A DNA stretch of 64,000 nucleotides from IMG/VR virus record IMGVR_UViG_3300032304_000900, positions 13,914-77,913 of that record; one strand, given 5' to 3'. The DNA is from a virus. The position numbers were made by a program, and so were the translations under genes. The notes below the pieces were generated by a model. It made no database searches. It was not told the origin of the DNA and worked only from the letters and a program-made list of their open reading frames with translations. Position 1 is the first letter of the stretch, and each line of letters begins with the position of its first letter. This document shows, one piece after another, positions 12,475-54,300 of this stretch.

Positions 12475-15400
12475 TTATGCTTGTGCTTCAGTCCAAGCCA
12501 CACGACAAGCAATATCCTGAGCAGTACCAGTAATATTTGTTACAACAACGTGAATAGTATCTGGACCATCTGGATAAATGTTTGCGTTACCAGCAGTACC
12601 ACCACCACCAAGGATAGAGTTACCTAGATCACGGACAAGATTCAAATCTTGTGCAGTGGTTGTAAAACCAGTACCAGATCCTGGGTTTGTATAGAAACCA
12701 CCGATAATTTCACCACCAGACATTGTTGTACCAGCTGTGTAGATGATATACTGAGCCAGTGACGAACCACCCTGTGATAACCATGTACCAGCAGTTGACG
12801 GAGTTGAGTTCAAGAACAACTGAACTAGGAAACGTCCATTAGATAGAACACCAATTTGACGTAGAACCATTTGCATGCGGTTTACGATATCACGAGAACC
12901 AATTGCAGAAGCAGCGGATCCGTTCGATACGTGAGGTGCGATACGTAGAGCCAACACTGCGTTTGTTGCGCCAATACCAATGTTAATTGGTGCTGTCATA
13001 CCACGCAAGAACACGAATGATTTATCGTCATCGAAACGACCATCCATCATTACGGAAGTACCCCAGTGATTAATTTGTGAACCAACTAGTGGCGCATGTA
13101 ATTGAATAACTGTTGGTGCTGTTGCTGAGAATGTAAATGTCTGAGCAGTTTGTCCCATTGGAGCGTATACCAATGTTGTAGTTGCTGAAGACTGAGCAGC
13201 ACGACTTAGTGTAATTGATGTATTAGCAATAAAACTCACAACATATGTGCCGTGTGGGAAAATGCCCAAAGAAGGAGCCACGACATACTGACCAATTTGA
13301 ACACCTGTTGTTGAAGAAACAGTTACTGTATTAGAACCACTAGTATGTGTGCTGCTTATAGAACCACCTGCTTGACCACGAGTAATACCACCAAATGTAG
13401 TAGCTGATTTGGTTGTGTAGTTAATATATTCTGTTTGAGTGCCGTTGCGGACCATCAATGTGCCAGAACTTGGAAATTCGGTAGTTGATGTTACGTTGAT
13501 TGTTGTATCAGAAGAACCGAAAGTAGCAGTAGAGAATGTATACTTAGAAATAGTATTTGTCTCATAGCGAGCTGGTAAGTTACCAGAACGCATATATGCT
13601 TCAGAATTCAAGTTGTTATTCATTTGTCTGTGACAGTAAATAATGTTACCATCAGCAGCACGGAAACCCCAACGAATGTAACCAGCACCGTACCATGAGT
13701 AGTCCATGTAGTACATTTGCATCTTAGATGTATCTAAAACAAAGCCACTTGGACCTGTACCATCGCAACGATCCATGTTCCAAGCAGATTGTGCAATTCT
13801 GGTATCGACTGTTTTAGAAATAATACCTTTTGTCAAGTTAGAAGTACCACGATATGCTGGGTAAATTGTCATGCTTGTGTCAGAAGCGATGTTTAGAACA
13901 CGATAAGTATGACCACGCAATACGATAAAATCGTTTGGTTGTAATTGTTTAGCGAACTGAGTTGTTACACCATTTGTTGTTAAACCAGTAACTGTGTTAT
14001 CAGCAGCGTTGATGGAAACGAAACCACCGATTTGATATGTTGAAGAGCGACGAACAGCAAACAGTCCTTGTCCATCGTGTTCAAAGAAGATACCATTCTG
14101 ACTGTCAAATATACCAGTGCGGTTTGTACCACCATACCATGAGTCAACACTGATTTGGAAGTTACCAGAAGCTGTTGCTGCTGATGGTGTACCAGAAGCA
14201 GTATATTCAAAACGATAACGATCAATTACACGTGTTACAGCGTATGTTCCGTTATATGCAGATTCGGTTGTGCCAAACACTTTAATACTAACTGTTGGCT
14301 GTAAGTTGTGTGGGAACTTGGTGTAAACAGTTACAGTAGAGCCTGATGATGTCATCGCATCAACAGCTATCTGTGACTTTAGTGCTGTACCAGTCGATAC
14401 TTGAACACCTTTACCAGACTGGTAACGGAAGTAACGACGTGTCTGACGAATCATTTGTTGATTGTGAGAAGGTGTATTTGTAGAGAATGATACACCACCA
14501 TCAAATGGACGATGATTTGATGTTCCAGGAGGGCGCACGTAAATGGTGTTAGCAGAACCTGTTGGAGCACCAGCGTTAGCAGTAGTATCTGTGTAGAAGC
14601 AGAATACAGTTGGTGATAGAATAGAGTAAACAAAGTGATTACCATATTGAGAATCTGTTGCACCACCTGTTTTGCTGTTAATCAAAGCAATTTCGTTACC
14701 AATCTCAAGACCATGTGGTAATGTGCAAGTAACTTGTTGTAACTGACCAGATGGAGCAGCGTAAGTTGGTGTACCACCTAAACCTGCACCAGTAAAGAAC
14801 TGTGCGTCATAAATTGTTGTTGGGATATTAGCATCATTGATATCTGTTGATGGTGTACTACCAGTAATCCATGCTTCGTTTGCTTTATAAGTGAAAGAGG
14901 TACCACCTGGAACTGTTTCGATTATGAATAAACCATTAGCAGGTGCCCAAGCTGAATCTTGAATCATTACCATTTGACCAACTACGAAACCAGTTGAAGA
15001 ACCTACAGTTACAGTAACAAGACGAGATCCGTTTGATACTGTTAAGTTTGTAATTGTTGTAGCAGATGCTTGGCTGCGACCAAAGTTTGGACGATCCAAG
15101 TTAATGAAAGCGGATGGACGATTATTGATTAATGATAATTGTTCCCATTTAGTTGGCTGTAAACCATATTCAAAGTCAGTATCAATTAAAGATTGTGGCT
15201 GAGAAGTACGGAATTTACCAACTGGATCCATTAATGTTTCGCCAGGAGTAAACTTACTTTCGTATTCGTCAACGATAACTTGTAGTTTATCGTTCGCTCC
15301 CATTGATGTTGTATTATATTGCAATACGATTGTTGTAATCGCATCACTTTGGTATCCTAACGCTGCACCACCTGTAGTGTGCGTGTAAGATGTTGCCTTC

Positions 15401-48068: not shown

Positions 48069-48653
48069 ATGAAAAAACAATCAACTGGTAAATTAGAATC
48101 TATCTTTAACGATAGCGCATATGATATATCTGCTGCTAAAAAGTCGCAACAGTGGTTCACAGCACAAATTAAAAAACTATCTACAGCAACTCCACAAAAA
48201 GTTTTACGTGATGGAACATTAACATCAACTATGATTCCTGGAGGAATGTATCTGTTTTACTATGACCCAAAACACAAAGATACATTACCATATTATGACA
48301 GATTTCCATTAGTTTTGCCATTTAGAAAAGTAAAAGGTGGTTTCTACGGATTAAACTTTCATTACTTACCACCTTTGTTGCGTGTAAGATTACTGGATAG
48401 ATTGTTACAATTTTCAACAACAGCTGGCTTAACAGAACAAACAAAATTAAGATTTAAATATCAACTTATTGCTGGAAGCGCAAAATTTGCAGCAGCACAA
48501 CCTTGTGTAAAAATGTATTTGAATAATCATGTAATGAGTAGATTTGTTGAAATAAACCCAAACGATTGGGTAACTGCTATGCTACTTCCTGTAGAAAGGT
48601 TTGTTGGAGCAAATAAAGACAATGTTTGGAGAGATTCTAAAAGGGCAATCTAA
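48069..48653 (+). CDS. gp2: DNA end protector protein (gp2)
   Basis: MYLFYYDPKHKDTLPYYDRFPLV, GLNFHYLPPLLR, W.TAMLLPVERF, VWRDSK. Confidence 0.93.
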   Translation: MKKQSTGKLESIFNDSAYDISAAKKSQQWFTAQIKKLSTATPQKVLRDGTLTSTMIPGGMYLFYYDPKHKDTLPYYDRFPLVLPFRKVKGGFYGLNFHYLPPLLRVRLLDRLLQFSTTAGLTEQTKLRFKYQLIAGSAKFAAAQPCVKMYLNNHVMSRFVEINPNDWVTAMLLPVERFVGANKDNVWRDSKRAI

Positions 48654-49321
48654 TGGCATCAATTAACGAATTTATAGCACAAGTAAAAGAAGAAGGATTA
48701 GCAAGAGATAATCGATATCTTGTTACAATCACACCACCACAATTTTTGGTCGCTAACGCACCAGATGTAAAATTAAGATTGTTGTGCCAAAGTGTATCAA
48801 TGCCAGGAATGAATTTTGTTTCAAACCCAGTACTAACATATGGCGAACAACGTGAAGTGATTTACAATCGTCAATTTGAACCAATTAATATGGAGTGGAT
48901 ACTTGATAGTAGATTGGATATTAAAAAGTTTTGGGATGAGTGGCAACAACTAATGATTCATCCAGTTTCTAGAATGGTTAGTTACTATGAAGATTATATT
49001 GGAACAATTGAAATCGATCAACTAGATGCAAGCAACGAAGAAAGACCAAGATATGCTGTAAGATTATATGAAGCATATCCTAAAACAGTAGCACCAATTT
49101 CTTTTAGTGCGGGATCAAAAGAAATTACTAAGTTGTCAGTAACAATTGAATACAAATATTGGCTACCATTAAATGTAGCAAGTAGCAGTAATGATTCACA
49201 ATATATTCCAGATTTTAATATGGGGTCGCCATCATATCAAGATTTACTTGGTGGTGGAATTCAATCATTTAATGTATCAGGAAGTACATTAGATTGGCCA
49301 TATCAAGAAATTGACATATAA
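48653..49321 (+). CDS. Tail tube initiator / gp19 paralogue (gp54-like)
   Basis: GLARDNRYLV, LLCQSVSMPG, YYEDYIGTIEI.QL, LYEAYPKTV, KLSVTIEYKYW; tube-fold family. Confidence 0.75.
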   Translation: MASINEFIAQVKEEGLARDNRYLVTITPPQFLVANAPDVKLRLLCQSVSMPGMNFVSNPVLTYGEQREVIYNRQFEPINMEWILDSRLDIKKFWDEWQQLMIHPVSRMVSYYEDYIGTIEIDQLDASNEERPRYAVRLYEAYPKTVAPISFSAGSKEITKLSVTIEYKYWLPLNVASSSNDSQYIPDFNMGSPSYQDLLGGGIQSFNVSGSTLDWPYQEIDI

Positions 49322-49348
49322 TAACAATAATAAAAAGAAAGGGTAATT

Positions 49349-49771
49349 ATGTCAGAAGAAAAAGCAAAAGAAGATTGGATGCAAAAGAAATGGCGTCCTG
49401 CTATGGGATGGATGTATATGGTTGTATGTTTCTGTGACATGGTTTTATTTCCAGTAGCTTGGTCAATTCTACAAGCAGTATTACATCAACCTGTTACACA
49501 ATGGAATCCTCTAACACTACAGGGTGCAGGTTTATTTCACTTGGCTATGGGTGCTGTATTAGGTATTGCTGCTTGGGGTAGAACGCAAGAGAAAGTTGCT
49601 GGAGCATCAACTGTTCCAACATCAGTAGGTTTACCAACTCCATCTCCAATAAGTTCAAGTATGCCATCATTATCACCAACACCAACAGTAACACCATCAC
49701 CAATGGCATCTGCTAAAATTCCTGATGATGCTCCTGTTGTTCCTAAAGGACGCATGAAAATTGAAGACTGA
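49349..49771 (+). CDS. Putative holin (3TM, gene-transfer-agent-type family) with Pro/Ser/Thr-rich tail
   Basis: WMQKKWRPAMGWMYMVVC..D...FP, WNPLTLQGAGLFHLAMGAVLGIAAWGRTQEK with hydrophobic segments. Confidence 0.7.
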   Translation: MSEEKAKEDWMQKKWRPAMGWMYMVVCFCDMVLFPVAWSILQAVLHQPVTQWNPLTLQGAGLFHLAMGAVLGIAAWGRTQEKVAGASTVPTSVGLPTPSPISSSMPSLSPTPTVTPSPMASAKIPDDAPVVPKGRMKIED

Positions 49772-50192
49772 TAAAGAATTGAGTAAAGTTTTTGACATTG
49801 AAGTTGAAAATGAAAAGGTAGGTGTAACAACAAATCTTGTTATTCAAGATGATGTTGTAAAAACATCTACGGAAAAAGTTGAGTCTGATTTTGATCAGAC
49901 AAGAAAAAACTTGCATCTTCTCTTGTTACAGGGAGAAGATGCTTTGATGGGTGCTCTTGAAGTTGCAAAATCTTCAGAGCATCCACGTGCTTTTGAAGTT
50001 GTTGGAAATTTAATAAAACAACTTGCTGATGTAAACCAGCAACTTATGGATCTTCATAAACAGAAACAAAATTTAGAAGAAACGAAAGATGGTTTATCTC
50101 CTAAAAAAAGTGTAACAAACAACAATGCAATATTTGTTGGAAGCACAGCTGAATTGAATAAGTTGATTAACAATATGTCTAAAGGGGAATAA
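49761..50192 (+). CDS. gp16: Terminase small subunit (gp16)
   Basis: DFDQTRKNLHLL, ALEVAKSSEHPRAFEVVGNLIKQLADVNQQLMDLH, VTNNNAIFVGSTAEL, matching T4-like gp16; TTG start overlapping the holin end. Confidence 0.88.
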   Translation: MKTDKELSKVFDIEVENEKVGVTTNLVIQDDVVKTSTEKVESDFDQTRKNLHLLLLQGEDALMGALEVAKSSEHPRAFEVVGNLIKQLADVNQQLMDLHKQKQNLEETKDGLSPKKSVTNNNAIFVGSTAELNKLINNMSKGE

Positions 50193-50194
50193 TA

Positions 50195-50905
50195 ATGACA
50201 TTACCAATGTATAAACATCCTGTCTATACAACAACATTGCCTTCTACTGGAAAGCAAATAAAGTTTAGACCATTCTTAGTAAAGGATGAGAAAAACCTTC
50301 TTCTAGCGCAACAAAGCGAAGAAGAACTAAACATGATTGATACTTTAAAAACAGTTATATCTGACTGTATTTTAGATAAAGATATTAATGTTGACGATCT
50401 TGCTATATTTGATTTAGAATATATGTTTACACAACTACGTGCTAAATCAGTTGGTGAAGAAGTTGAATTGATATTTACATGTAAAAATAATGAATGTAAA
50501 GACAAAACTAAAATATCTTTTAAGATTGAACCAGAACTAATTAGACCAGAAGGTCATAGTAATAAAATCGATCTGTTTGATGATGTTGGTGTAGTTATGA
50601 AGTATGCGAATTCTTCCATTCTAAAAGATATTTCAAAATTAGATACTTCAAATCCTGATCAAATTTTAGATCTAATCGTAAGCTGTATTGATTACATTTA
50701 CGATGCAGAATCTGTTTATCCTGCAAAAGAACAAAAGAAACAGGATTTAATTAAGTTCGTTGAGGGTTTGCCTAGAGCACCGACTGATAAAATTAAAAAG
50801 TTTTTTGAGACAACACCACGTTTGCAACAAAAGATTGAATTTGATTGTCCCAAATGTAAAACACATAATGATTATATAATTGAAGGAATAGATAGTTTTT
50901 TTTAA
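50195..50905 (+). CDS. gp26: Baseplate hub subunit/assembly protein (gp26-like)
   Basis: LPSTGKQIKFRPFLVKDEKNLL, FDLEYMFTQLRAKSVGE, two Cys pairs (CKNNEC, CPKC), C-terminal EGIDSFF. Confidence 0.88.
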   Translation: MTLPMYKHPVYTTTLPSTGKQIKFRPFLVKDEKNLLLAQQSEEELNMIDTLKTVISDCILDKDINVDDLAIFDLEYMFTQLRAKSVGEEVELIFTCKNNECKDKTKISFKIEPELIRPEGHSNKIDLFDDVGVVMKYANSSILKDISKLDTSNPDQILDLIVSCIDYIYDAESVYPAKEQKKQDLIKFVEGLPRAPTDKIKKFFETTPRLQQKIEFDCPKCKTHNDYIIEGIDSFF

Positions 50906-51090
50906 TTTGCCTTAGTCATGAAAATTTGTTTAATCACTATCAAATAAATTTCGGTTTGGTTCAGCATCATAAATACTCACTTGAGGAACTAGAGAATATG
51001 ATGCCATTTGAGAGGGAGATATATGTGTCGATGTTGTTACAACATCTAGAAGAAGAACGACAAAGATTACAAGAAAGAATTAACAAATGA
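50896..51090 (+). CDS. gp51: gp51-like hub assembly catalyst, in the -1 frame of gp26 with no good start codon (probable frameshift fusion)
   Basis: Not in the ORF track; translates as FFLICLSHENLFNHYQINFGLVQHHKYSLEELENMMPFEREIYVSMLLQHLEEERQRLQERINK*. QHHKYSL.ELENMMP.EREIY is the gp51-like signature. The stop overlaps the next ATG (ATGA). Confidence 0.8.
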   Translation, partial: FFLICLSHENLFNHYQINFGLVQHHKYSLEELENMMPFEREIYVSMLLQHLEEERQRLQERINK

Positions 51091-52748
51091 GATTAGTCTT
51101 AGATAAACTAGAAGAATATCAACCTGGAAATATAAAACTTAGACAGTTTGCAGGAGATCTCGCAGATAGTATCAAATCTAACTATGAGAGAGGAAGAACA
51201 TCCGTAACAGGTGGTAAAGAAGGTGCTGGTTTAGCTGGTTCATCTTTTTTCGAAAGTTTGGGTCTAACAGGCATTGCTAAGGCATATAAAGAAAAATCAG
51301 AAGCAAAAGAGCAACGTCGTCAAGATAAAGAAAAATTTATTGGCGACTTTCAGCAATATTCAGAAGCAGGAAAGACACTATCAGCAGACACCTCTCGTCA
51401 AATTGCTGATTCATTGTTTGAAGAAATTGCATCTAAACGTGAAGAATTAAAACGACTTCAAGAAGAAGAAGCAAGAATTCGAGAAGCAGGTTATAAAGTA
51501 AGCGAAGAAAATCTTGCGAAACAAAAAGAACTTGTTGATGCGATTAAAAATTTAGATCCAAGAACAGGCGACAAACAAGAAGGTTCCGCTGATCAAAATT
51601 TAAATCAAATACAATCTGCTGAAAAAGAAATGGAAGCAGCAGAAGTTGCGACTGAACATTTCGAGGTACAGAAAAAAGAACAAGAAGATATTACTGCTCT
51701 TTATACAATTACCGATGACCATTTTAAAAAAATGGATAAACGTACTGAAGAAATGCTTGAAGCATTAAAGGTTATCGCCGAAAATGGTGTTGGTGGTGGA
51801 GGTGGTGGCTTACTTAGTAGTGCTGCTGATCTGCTCGGACGTGGTGGTAAAGCAGCAGGAACTGCAGGAAAAATAGGCAAACTAGCAGGAATGGCTGGTA
51901 AACTTGGTACAGTTGCAAAAGTTGGTGGTGGTATACTAGCAGTAGGAACAGCTGCAGCTGATGCATATGGTGATTACTCTGAGGCACAAAGACAAGTTGA
52001 TGCTGGAGAGATTACAAAAGAACAAGGACAAGTTAAGAAAGGCGAAGCAGTAGGTGGTGGTGTTGGTGCTGCTGGTGGTGCTCTCGCTGGAATGAAAGCA
52101 GGTGCTGCTTTAGGAACATTCTTAGGTCCAGTTGGAACAGTAGTTGGTGGTCTCCTTGGTGGAGCAGCAGGTTATATTGGTGGTAAATATCTCGGGAAAA
52201 AAGCAGGTGGTGGTGCAGTATCTGGTTATCAAGCAGTAACAGGAACTGGTGGAGAAATGGCAGCACCAGCAGCATCTCAAGCAGCACCAGCAGGCACAGA
52301 AAACACAAGTCAAGGACAGTCAATTGATCCTGAAGTAAAAGCAAAAGATCCACTCTATCAGAAAATTTTCCAAGAAGAGTTAAAACTGTCAGGAAATAAT
52401 CGTGCAATCGCAGAAAAATTTGCAGATAAAAGATATTTACAAGAAAAAAATCTACAATCTAAAACTGGAGTGTCAAAAGTTTCTGATAAATCATCAGTTT
52501 CTGCTGCTACTCAAGCTACTCCAGAAAAAGTGCCAACATCTCAAGCAGTAGAAATTCAAGCACGCAGACGTGGTGTTCAAGATGCAGAAGCAGCAGCAGC
52601 ACAAACATCTGGAAATAATACAAATGTAAATGCTCCAGTAACAAACGTAGTAAATAATACTACGACACAACAAGGTCCAAAAGACACGAAAAATGCAGAT
52701 ACAACTTTTCAGAAATATCTAGATAGAAGATATTATCCAACAGCGTAA
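51087..52748 (+). CDS. Probable tape measure / hub protein (gp29-like)
   Basis: 553 aa; N-terminal coiled coil, central Gly/Ala-rich hydrophobic segment, C-terminal NVNAPVTNVVNN; follows gp26/gp51. Confidence 0.65.
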   Translation: MRLVLDKLEEYQPGNIKLRQFAGDLADSIKSNYERGRTSVTGGKEGAGLAGSSFFESLGLTGIAKAYKEKSEAKEQRRQDKEKFIGDFQQYSEAGKTLSADTSRQIADSLFEEIASKREELKRLQEEEARIREAGYKVSEENLAKQKELVDAIKNLDPRTGDKQEGSADQNLNQIQSAEKEMEAAEVATEHFEVQKKEQEDITALYTITDDHFKKMDKRTEEMLEALKVIAENGVGGGGGGLLSSAADLLGRGGKAAGTAGKIGKLAGMAGKLGTVAKVGGGILAVGTAAADAYGDYSEAQRQVDAGEITKEQGQVKKGEAVGGGVGAAGGALAGMKAGAALGTFLGPVGTVVGGLLGGAAGYIGGKYLGKKAGGGAVSGYQAVTGTGGEMAAPAASQAAPAGTENTSQGQSIDPEVKAKDPLYQKIFQEELKLSGNNRAIAEKFADKRYLQEKNLQSKTGVSKVSDKSSVSAATQATPEKVPTSQAVEIQARRRGVQDAEAAAAQTSGNNTNVNAPVTNVVNNTTTQQGPKDTKNADTTFQKYLDRRYYPTA

Positions 52749-52762
52749 AACAGGAGATTATA

Positions 52763-53356
52763 ATGCTTGGCGAATTATATTATTCAACAAAATTTTTAAC
52801 AGAAAATGAATGTAGCATTCTATTAAATCATTACAAAACTAATGAAGAAAAAGCTGTTCGCTCAATGGTTGGTTTTACTCCACCAAAAGTTGATTTTACA
52901 TATAGAATTAGTAAATCATTACAATTAGATATTGATAAACCAGAAATTAAATCAATTATAAACAAAGTAACAGAAACAGCAAAACATATTAATGAAGAAG
53001 TATTTCTGTTCAGTGTTAATTGGGAAGAGTCAATGAAGCCAAAAAATTTTTTGGTCAATGAATATGATGGAACAGAAAAAGCATTCTGGACAAAACACCA
53101 AAGTGTTAATTGGATTTCAAATGCGAATCAAAGAAAACTTTGTGCGACAGTGATTTTATCTGATACAAATGAATATGAGGGTGGAGATTTTATTATGTAT
53201 TTTGGAAGCACAAAAGATCAACCAAAACCACAAGAAATGAGGACAAAGGGAACACTGGTTATTTTTCCAGCATTTCGATTTGTTCAAATAATGCCTGTAC
53301 TATCAGGAAAGAAATATCATTTCGATTTGTTTTGGGAAGGACCATATTGGCGTTAA
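52763..53356 (+). CDS. 2OG-Fe(II) oxygenase-like protein (metal ligands apparently altered)
   Basis: RKLCATVILSDTNEYEGGDF...KGTLVIFPAF...PV..G..Y...W.EGP.WR scaffold of phage P4H-like oxygenases; HQS in place of HxD and no distal His. Confidence 0.75.
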   Translation: MLGELYYSTKFLTENECSILLNHYKTNEEKAVRSMVGFTPPKVDFTYRISKSLQLDIDKPEIKSIINKVTETAKHINEEVFLFSVNWEESMKPKNFLVNEYDGTEKAFWTKHQSVNWISNANQRKLCATVILSDTNEYEGGDFIMYFGSTKDQPKPQEMRTKGTLVIFPAFRFVQIMPVLSGKKYHFDLFWEGPYWR

Positions 53357-53382: not shown

Positions 53383-54300
53383 TTATTCGTTTGCTAACTT
53401 CTGAAAGTAAGACAAATCATCTTCATCATCAGCAGTAGTTGCTACTGATTTTGCTGGAGCAACAGCTGGCTTAGAAGCGATTCTTGGAGCAGGTGCCTCA
53501 GGACGATCTTCTTCTTCAGCAATTTGCGCAGCAGTACGAGATGGAGCACCTTCGCCACTCAAAACTTGCTCAAGTTTACGCTTGAGTTCATCATAAGTTT
53601 TAAAGTTCTTACGATCCAAAAACTCAGATAACTTGTATTGCTTAGAAACGATAGCAAGTTTTTCCTCATCAGTTGGAGCAATTTCTGTCTGTTCCATAAA
53701 TGTAGATTGATCATAATTAGAGTAACCATCTACTTTACGCATACGCAATTTAAAGTCTGCGCCTTCCCACAAATCAAACACGAGAACTGGTTTCTCATCT
53801 TCAAAGGTAGGATTGGCTTTGTCCATAATCTTATCAAAGATTTTCTTACCAAACTTGAACAATTTAACTTGTCCGTTGTTTTCTGGTTTAGCAGGATCGT
53901 TAATGATAAGTACGTTGGCGATATATGTCAACTTACGTTTTTGTTTGCGAGCAATTTCTTTGTTTGCTTCAGAACCAGAATTCCACAAACGTGAATTTAG
54001 TTCACCAACAGGATCATTCTCACCAAGAGTAGTCAAACTATTCTCGATGTACCATTTACCAGTCGGACCTTGAAAACTGTGATTGAAGACACGTGCCCAT
54101 GGGAACTCGTCACCCTCAACTCGTGGGAGAAAACGAATCGTAGCTGTAGCATTACCTGCTTTATCTGGAGTCAGTTTCCAGAAACGATCGTCTTCGTAAG
54201 ATTTACCACCCTCGCCTGATGGCTTTGCGATTTTATCGAACTCACCAAGAATTTTAGAGAAATCTTGTGTGCGAGATTTGCGAAGTGTATTGATATCCAT
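53383..54300 (-). CDS. gp32: Single-stranded DNA-binding protein (gp32)
   Basis: DDRFWKL..DKAGN..A.IRFLP, HSFQGPTGKWYIENSLTTLG, FKFGKKIFDKI, FDLWEGADFKL, acidic tail DDEDDLSYFQKLA. Confidence 0.97.
   Translation of the reverse strand: MDINTLRKSRTQDFSKILGEFDKIAKPSGEGGKSYEDDRFWKLTPDKAGNATATIRFLPRVEGDEFPWARVFNHSFQGPTGKWYIENSLTTLGENDPVGELNSRLWNSGSEANKEIARKQKRKLTYIANVLIINDPAKPENNGQVKLFKFGKKIFDKIMDKANPTFEDEKPVLVFDLWEGADFKLRMRKVDGYSNYDQSTFMEQTEIAPTDEEKLAIVSKQYKLSEFLDRKNFKTYDELKRKLEQVLSGEGAPSRTAAQIAEEEDRPEAPAPRIASKPAVAPAKSVATTADDEDDLSYFQKLANE

Follow-up and report, generated by a model that had tools for sequence, protein, structure and literature searches.

The gp26-like gene and its 3′ end

The stretch of DNA analysed here, referred to below as the window, comprises 64,000 nt of the IMG/VR virus record IMGVR_UViG_3300032304_000900 (positions 13,914 to 77,913 of that record), from an uncultured T4-like phage. 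On the + strand of the window, positions 50195..50905 carry an ORF whose 0-frame product is 236 aa long and which ends with a TAA codon at 50903-50905. The translation matches PF12322 (T4_baseplate) with an E value of 2.7e-56 and a score of 191 bits against a cut-off of 24.5. The match extends over profile positions 2-218 of 219 and over residues 9-236 of the protein, which meets membership of the family. The same product matches phrog_150 ('baseplate hub'; E 1.2e-61, profile positions 5-232 of 282). We call this gene gp26-like; its role as a baseplate-hub chaperone gene is inferred.

The 3′ end of the ORF reads GAT AGT TTT TTT TAA. A run of eight T residues (50896-50903) contains the slippery heptamer T TTT TTT (50896..50902, + strand), which has the X XXY YYZ pattern in the phase of the 0 frame. 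The 0-frame stop codon TAA (50903..50905, + strand) abuts the heptamer and may serve as a stimulator of the 'shifty stop' type, a role that is inferred. Eight nucleotides upstream of the heptamer there is a Shine–Dalgarno (SD)-like AAGGA (50883..50887, + strand), a possible stimulator of the dnaX type, which is weak in the window and whose function is likewise an inference. An earlier note on this DNA had placed an 8-T run with a slippery heptamer at the stop of gp26, and the sequence bears this out with exact coordinates. The T8 run is common to four independent metagenome assemblies (IMG/VR contigs of the same phage or of a close relative): the junction is identical in three of them, and in the fourth the gp26 gene is 92% identical and there are nearby substitutions. 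The T-run is therefore not an assembly error.

The −1 frame extension

In the −1 frame a TAG codon at 50893-95 is followed by a frame that is open from 50896 to the TGA at 51088-90 (64 codons). The part behind the slip site (50902..51090, + strand; 62 codons plus TGA) encodes a domain resembling the C-terminal part of gp51, an assignment that rests on phrog_634, phrog_150, tblastn and hhalign. The extension matches phrog_634 ('baseplate hub assembly catalyst') with an E value of 4.4e-26. In phrog_150, of which the gp26-like product fills positions 5-232, the extension matches positions 231-279 (E 5.8e-9). The only candidate start codons of the −1 frame are TTG at 50926 and ATG at 50998, and both lie within the conserved domain. 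The ORFs, the phrog_634 match and the scan for starts thus agree with the earlier claim that the −1 frame encodes the whole gp51-like domain without a usable start.

A −1 shift on the heptamer is predicted to yield a fusion of 236 + 62 = 298 aa with the junction ...EGIDSFF/LICLSHENL, from which GluC would release the junction peptide GIDSFFLICLSHE. The sizes proposed before, a 236-aa gp26 and a fusion of about 298 aa, as well as the junction as it had been written, were confirmed from the sequence; no product has been observed.

Neighbouring genes

The TGA of the extension overlaps, as ATGA, the ATG at 51087 of a Gly/Ala-rich ORF of 553 aa (51087..52748, + strand). We take this ORF to be a probable tape measure gene, the analogue of T4 gene 29, on weak evidence from phrog profiles and from the ESM Atlas. 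It has weak matches to phrog_794 ('tail length tape measure', E 3.2e-4) and phrog_1047 ('tail associated lysin', E 2.6e-7), and its ESM Atlas neighbours are a 'putative tail tape measure' (0.92) and a T4_Tape_measure cluster (0.88). A Pfam match was not found for the 553-aa ORF. Homology to T4 gp29 was considered and rejected, the BLASTP comparison being not significant. The earlier note had the stop of the extension overlap the ATG of the tape measure gene: the overlap is there, and the identity of the overlapping gene depends on the weak matches just listed. In the phages Melnitz, DLP_6 and phiM12 one small ORF separates the extension from the next large ORF, which is tape-measure-like according to the phiM12 annotation.

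The gene directly upstream of the gp26-like gene encodes the small terminase subunit (PF11053, phrog_445) and not the major tail tube protein. A tail-tube-like ORF (phrog_45) is found at 48653-49321, three genes upstream of the gp26-like gene. The complete order in the segment preceding gp26 (48069-50192, + strand) is gp2 DNA end protector (phrog_429), tail-tube paralogue (phrog_45), holin-like ORF and small terminase (phrog_445), an order unlike both the T4 and the cyanophage layouts around gp26/gp51. The holin-like ORF (49349-49771, + strand; 140 aa) has a domain with three transmembrane segments (PF11351, E 2.6e-7; phrog_3427 holin). Situated between the tail-tube-like and the small terminase genes, and overlapping the terminase ORF by 11 nt, it has a position that is not usual for the holins of T4-like phages.

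Downstream of the tape-measure-like ORF there is a 197-aa ORF (52763-53356, + strand) with a sub-threshold match to PF13640 (2OG-Fe(II) oxygenase; E 1.3e-3, 20.1 bits against a cut-off of 27). The large ORF that follows gp51 in cyanophages bears the annotation '2OG-Fe(II) oxygenase family like'; a domain may therefore be fused in those phages and separate in the window. The next ORF (53383-54300, − strand; 305 aa) encodes a product that reads like a gp32-type single-stranded DNA-binding protein; no family search was made for it.

Junctions in related phages

A tblastn search with the 64-residue peptide of the −1 frame against 50,697 phage records matched 526 records. Of the 60 matches listed, almost all began with the FF (residue 1), and most overlapped the end of an annotated gp26-type (baseplate hub subunit) gene. 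Among the matched records were Synechococcus and Prochlorococcus cyanophages, KVP40-like Vibrio phages, Sinorhizobium phage phiM12, phages of Pelagibacter, Methylophilales, Caulobacter, Pseudomonas and Stenotrophomonas, and Shewanella phage Thanatos-1.

Junctions were gathered from isolate genomes and from two IMG/VR scans and were analysed by script; 167 unique split junctions were obtained. These loci are phylogenetically related, and the raw counts and p-values, which ignore kinship, therefore overstate independence. The extension was in the −1 frame in all 167 junctions, and the heptamer T TTT TTN was also present in every one, as TTTTTTC (103), TTTTTTT (53) or TTTTTTA (11) and never as TTTTTTG. 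This is more than chance would give. The comparison of junctions across T4-like phages that had been proposed in the earlier note thus returned a conserved T-run and a gp51 part that is always in the −1 frame. The T-run was 6 nt long in 114 junctions, 7 nt in 16, 8 nt in 36 and 9 nt in one. The 0-frame stop followed the heptamer immediately in 47 junctions and after 3 nt in 107 (154/167 within 0-3 nt); in the remaining 13 it lay 6-27 nt away.

The codon before the T-run varies (AGT, GAT, AAT, TCT, GCT, CAT, TTT), its wobble base being always T against a background of 76%, and the first Phe codon is TTT in all 167 junctions against a background of 70%. With a variable preceding residue and an invariant wobble T and TTT codon, the constraint acts at the level of the nucleotide sequence. 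Conservation of the encoded residues, FF-[LRY]-[ILV]-x-[LM]-x-H-[DE]-x-L..., starts directly after the heptamer. From the heptamer onward the third positions of the −1 frame are relaxed, with 0.88, 1.23 and 0.52 bits at codon positions 1, 2 and 3, respectively.

There was no ATG, GTG or TTG before residue 9 of the extension in 92 of the 167 junctions, nor is there one in the window, and the relatives accordingly show no conserved independent start of gp51, as the earlier note had supposed. In the other 75 junctions such a codon occurs, mostly as an ATG at residue 6 or 9. These early ATGs align with Leu/Met columns, and in the cases inspected they stood directly behind the T-run without an SD sequence.

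No joined CDS and no ribosomal-slippage annotation was present in the 13 GenBank records inspected for phages with the split form. These 13 records either lack 'gp51', shorten it to an internal ATG or let it begin at an early ATG. The shortening to an internal ATG is seen in S-RSM4, Melnitz and Astolliot, whereas ACG-2014j and S-CAM8 have no 'gp51' at all; the loci with inconsistent 'gp51' are L002 2504-2638, L012 1564-1707, L013 1543-1686, L001 3170-3353 and L099 1514-1693.

Proposed recoding mechanism

Very probably, the gene is decoded by a programmed −1 ribosomal frameshift of the kind that produces lambda gpG and gpGT, and yields proteins of 236 and 298 residues. That the slip occurs, and how often, is inferred in the absence of an observed product. 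Most ribosomes translating the PF12322 gene would stop at the TAA at 50903 and release the 236-aa gp26-like protein. Some ribosomes, with tRNA-Phe in both the P and the A site on UUU UUU (50897-50902), would move back by one nucleotide on U UUU UUU and then read the −1 frame (UUA AUU UGC ...) as far as the TGA at 51088-90. The outcome of such a slip would be a 298-aa protein consisting of the gp26-like domain and a helical, 62-residue domain of the gp51 type. The two predicted products would match T4 gp26 and gp51.

Shifty stops have been described in older work on E. coli. By inference, the adjacent stop codon and an SD-like GAGG or AAGG upstream assist the slip. At positions −14..−12 of the 167 junctions the Glu codon is GAG in 86 and GAA in 34 cases, against a background of 1087:2647 (odds ratio 6.2). 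The Gly codons GGA and GGG are enriched too in the conserved Glu-Gly pair at −14 to −9 (50882-50887 in the window), so that an SD-like GAGG precedes the heptamer by about 10 nt. The window itself has only AAGGA at this place, as opposed to the GAGG enriched across the junctions. The E. coli dnaX frameshift takes place on A AAA AAG and is supported by an upstream SD-like stimulator and a strong downstream hairpin. The site described here is similar in having a homopolymeric heptamer and, with the enriched GAGG, an SD-like element about 10 nt upstream; it differs from dnaX in lacking the strong downstream hairpin. A downstream stimulatory RNA structure was looked for and rejected: the 98 nt after the site of the window fold at z = +0.39, and at 95 loci the 60 nt following the heptamer fold no better than control windows from gp26.

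The same 298-aa fusion could be encoded in a single frame by a minority of mRNAs if the RNA polymerase added one U in the T-run. The window has a T8 run and 37 of the 167 junctions have T8 or T9, lengths that can cause polymerase slippage, and according to a 2016 review (PMC5009743) some sites may support both processes. What makes transcriptional slippage very improbable as the explanation is that the run has only six T residues, followed by C or A, in 114 of the 167 junctions, that it always begins at codon position 3, a phase (X XXY YYZ) which the polymerase does not require, and that G never occurs at the seventh position while the 0-frame stop hugs the site. Six T residues are fewer than in the runs known to give useful transcriptional slippage. 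The T6 majority, the fixed phase and the absence of G at the seventh position are thus not accounted for by transcriptional slippage, although it could contribute in T8 phages such as that of the window. Artefact or decay, as a miscounted homopolymer (in reality T9 and one ORF) or a gp51 that has become a pseudogene, is effectively refuted. Homopolymer runs are error-prone in some sequencing chemistries, but the four independent assemblies agree on T8, the same split is seen in the 167 unique junctions and in hundreds of isolate genomes, and both parts are still under purifying selection.

It is also conceivable that no fusion is made and that the extension is a separate peptide of about 55-62 aa, translated by termination-reinitiation or from a non-canonical start (TTG 50926, or ATT 50905 right behind the stop). 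Many GenBank records do annotate a small separate gp51, 75 of the 167 junctions offer an ATG, GTG or TTG before residue 9, and residue 4 is often ATT or ATA; with an ATG at residue 6 or 9 in about 45% of the relatives, separate initiation is conceivable in those phages. We nevertheless judge it very unlikely. Despite the conservation of residues 1-12, a start before residue 9 is lacking in the window and in 92/167 relatives, and the early starts that were inspected, being directly behind the T-run, lack an SD sequence and, where they are ATGs, fit Leu/Met columns. Moreover, the annotated starts disagree with one another and remove part of the conserved domain, T4-type phages have this domain in one covalent chain with a PF12322 domain, and a separate peptide would leave the invariant T6 and its phase unexplained. 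Programmed −1 frameshifting remains our preferred reading.

Relation to T4 gp26 and gp51

The products of two T4 genes, gp26 (208 aa) and gp51 (249 aa), belong to PF12322, as does the product of the window gene. In T4 gp51 a single ORF comprises the gp26-like domain (PF12322 over residues 1-201, E 3.9e-52) and the extension: its residues 200-244 match the profile of the extension (hhalign probability 95%, E 2.9e-8). The T4 gene layout is shared by Shewanella phage Thanatos-1, whose gp51 is likewise encoded in a single ORF (249 aa; PF12322 over residues 1-199, E 7.5e-45); the alignment of its residues after the PF12322 domain with the peptides of the −1 frame needs no gap. The predicted fusion is colinear with the gp51 proteins of T4 and Thanatos-1, with no gap across the junction. 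The window gene meets this T4-type gp51 architecture, PF12322 plus extension in one polypeptide, only through a −1 shift. The short product is comparable to T4 gp26, which consists of PF12322 alone, and like it (...EFFELL) ends in ...FF; the long product is comparable to gp51, with the gp26-like domain and the same C-terminal extension.

The two systems differ in gene number and in the junction. T4 has two divergently transcribed paralogous genes without a slippery run, whereas the window has one gene with a predicted frameshift. Complete genomes contain one PF12322 gene in P-SSM2, Vibrio phage Va3, phiM12 and Astolliot and two in T4; in the record of the window, which is 44% complete, PF12322 was found once. 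As a negative control, the T4-type gp26 and gp51 genes in the loci fetched were inspected, and a T6 run at the corresponding position was absent from all of them. In these loci the FF of T4-type gp26 is encoded by TTC TTT, or is replaced by FI, LF or IF, behind GAG or GAA, and T4-type gp51 genes have GTG TTT AAG or a similar sequence at the position of the junction. Vibrio phage Va3 (locus L017; Schizotequatrovirus, Straboviridae) has the single-gene frameshift form with a gp26-like ORF of 282 aa. Va3 belongs to the family of T4, Straboviridae, so both solutions exist within one family. In T4 an internal in-frame product, 26′, corresponding to the C-terminal 95 aa of gp26, is annotated (L098 3803-4090, − strand); T4 may thus make three products derived from PF12322.

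T4-type gp26, T4-type gp51 and the single-gene form made up one group each when the PF12322 domain was placed in a maximum-likelihood tree. The T4 gp26 and gp51 groups were strongly supported (100/100 and 100/99); the single-gene group, within which the KVP40-like vibriophage was basal, had moderate support (90/73). With three long branches meeting at one node and an arbitrary root, the tree cannot tell whether the duplication or the frameshift came first. The best reading of the sequences is that T4 gp26 and gp51 would be the unlinked, separately encoded version of the frameshift pair. A further step, that the single frameshifted gene is the older form, that T4 is derived from it by duplication with each copy fixing one product, and that with gp26/gp51 the T4 superfamily has its own version of the universal tail-chaperone frameshift, is put forward tentatively, as a possibility to which we give somewhat less than even weight.

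Comparison with lambda gpG/gpGT

A −1 frameshift in the tail assembly chaperone genes is reportedly conserved in long-tailed phages, as is said to have been described by Xu, Hendrix and Duda in 2004. The 2016 review by Atkins et al. (PMC5009743) states that this frameshift is conserved in long-tailed phages "except T4". The locus studied here resembles that of lambda gpG/gpGT in several respects: a −1 slip, here predicted, on an X XXY YYZ sequence near the 3′ end of a chaperone gene; a short and a long product with a common N-terminal part; no need for a stimulatory RNA structure; a second ORF without a start of its own that lies in the −1 frame and begins within the 3′ end of the first; and a location just upstream of a gene that is, on weak evidence, a probable tape measure gene. 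T4 gp26 and gp51 are listed as hub assembly chaperones, and the hub cannot be assembled without gp51, which is itself no part of the particle (Leiman et al. 2010, PMC3004832); this behaviour of gp51 is a further likeness to gpG/gpGT.

There are also clear differences. The protein of the window is larger and has CxxC pairs, the site of action of its T4 homologues is the baseplate hub, there is no tail tube gene immediately upstream, the stop abuts the slip site, and no sequence or fold relation to solved chaperones is detectable. In the AlphaFold2 model of a T4-type gp51 the protein forms one confident unit that includes the extension (pLDDT 96, pTM 0.90), the extension being folded as four helices. 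A sequence search of the PDB gave no match. With the same model Foldseek found nothing below E 0.2 in the PDB, and VIA-align against 48,161 chains returned only generic helix-hairpin matches with Z of 5.6 or less. The comparison with the structures of tail assembly chaperones, which the earlier note had proposed as a check, therefore failed to provide a link at the level of the fold; the known chaperone families are themselves dissimilar to one another.

In the absence of a fold or sequence relation, and with the gene not directly following a tail tube gene, the claim is that the pair works like G/GT and not that it is homologous to it. The functional equation with lambda G/T/H, in which the two products would act on the tape measure and the hub as G and GT act on gpH, is inferred by analogy. 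The chaperone role of the gp26/gp51 pair, a need for the two products in tail assembly and their absence from virions are likewise inferred, from the T4 literature rather than from data on this phage, and a fixed ratio between the two products would be an expectation by analogy.

Implications

The literature searched, which did not include the two JMB papers of Xu, Hendrix and Duda, and the GenBank records inspected contained no report of a frameshift at the gp26/gp51 site. The earlier note knew of no description of such a frameshift in T4-like phages, and these searches brought to light neither a paper nor a GenBank record that reports one.

The −1 frameshift of tail assembly chaperone genes is among the most widespread recoding events known. 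If our reading is correct, the window locus and its relatives in cyanophages, Pelagibacter and Methylophilales phages, KVP40-like vibriophages, rhizobiophages and Pseudomonas and Stenotrophomonas phages carry the same kind of frameshift in a different protein family. This would also explain T4, whose genes 26 and 51 would each encode one of the two products. Corrections would follow for hundreds of database annotations that lack gp51, shorten it to an internal ATG or present it as a small protein of its own. Phages with one gene and a frameshift and phages with two genes would constitute a natural experiment on why a fixed ratio of the short to the long protein is needed. The reading assigns a testable role to gp26 and gp51, whose functions in hub assembly have stayed unclear for decades. 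Should the frameshifted gene indeed be the older form, there would be no real exception among long-tailed phages to the rule of a short and a long chaperone, and the 62-residue extension would recruit hub or tube-initiator proteins to the tape measure.
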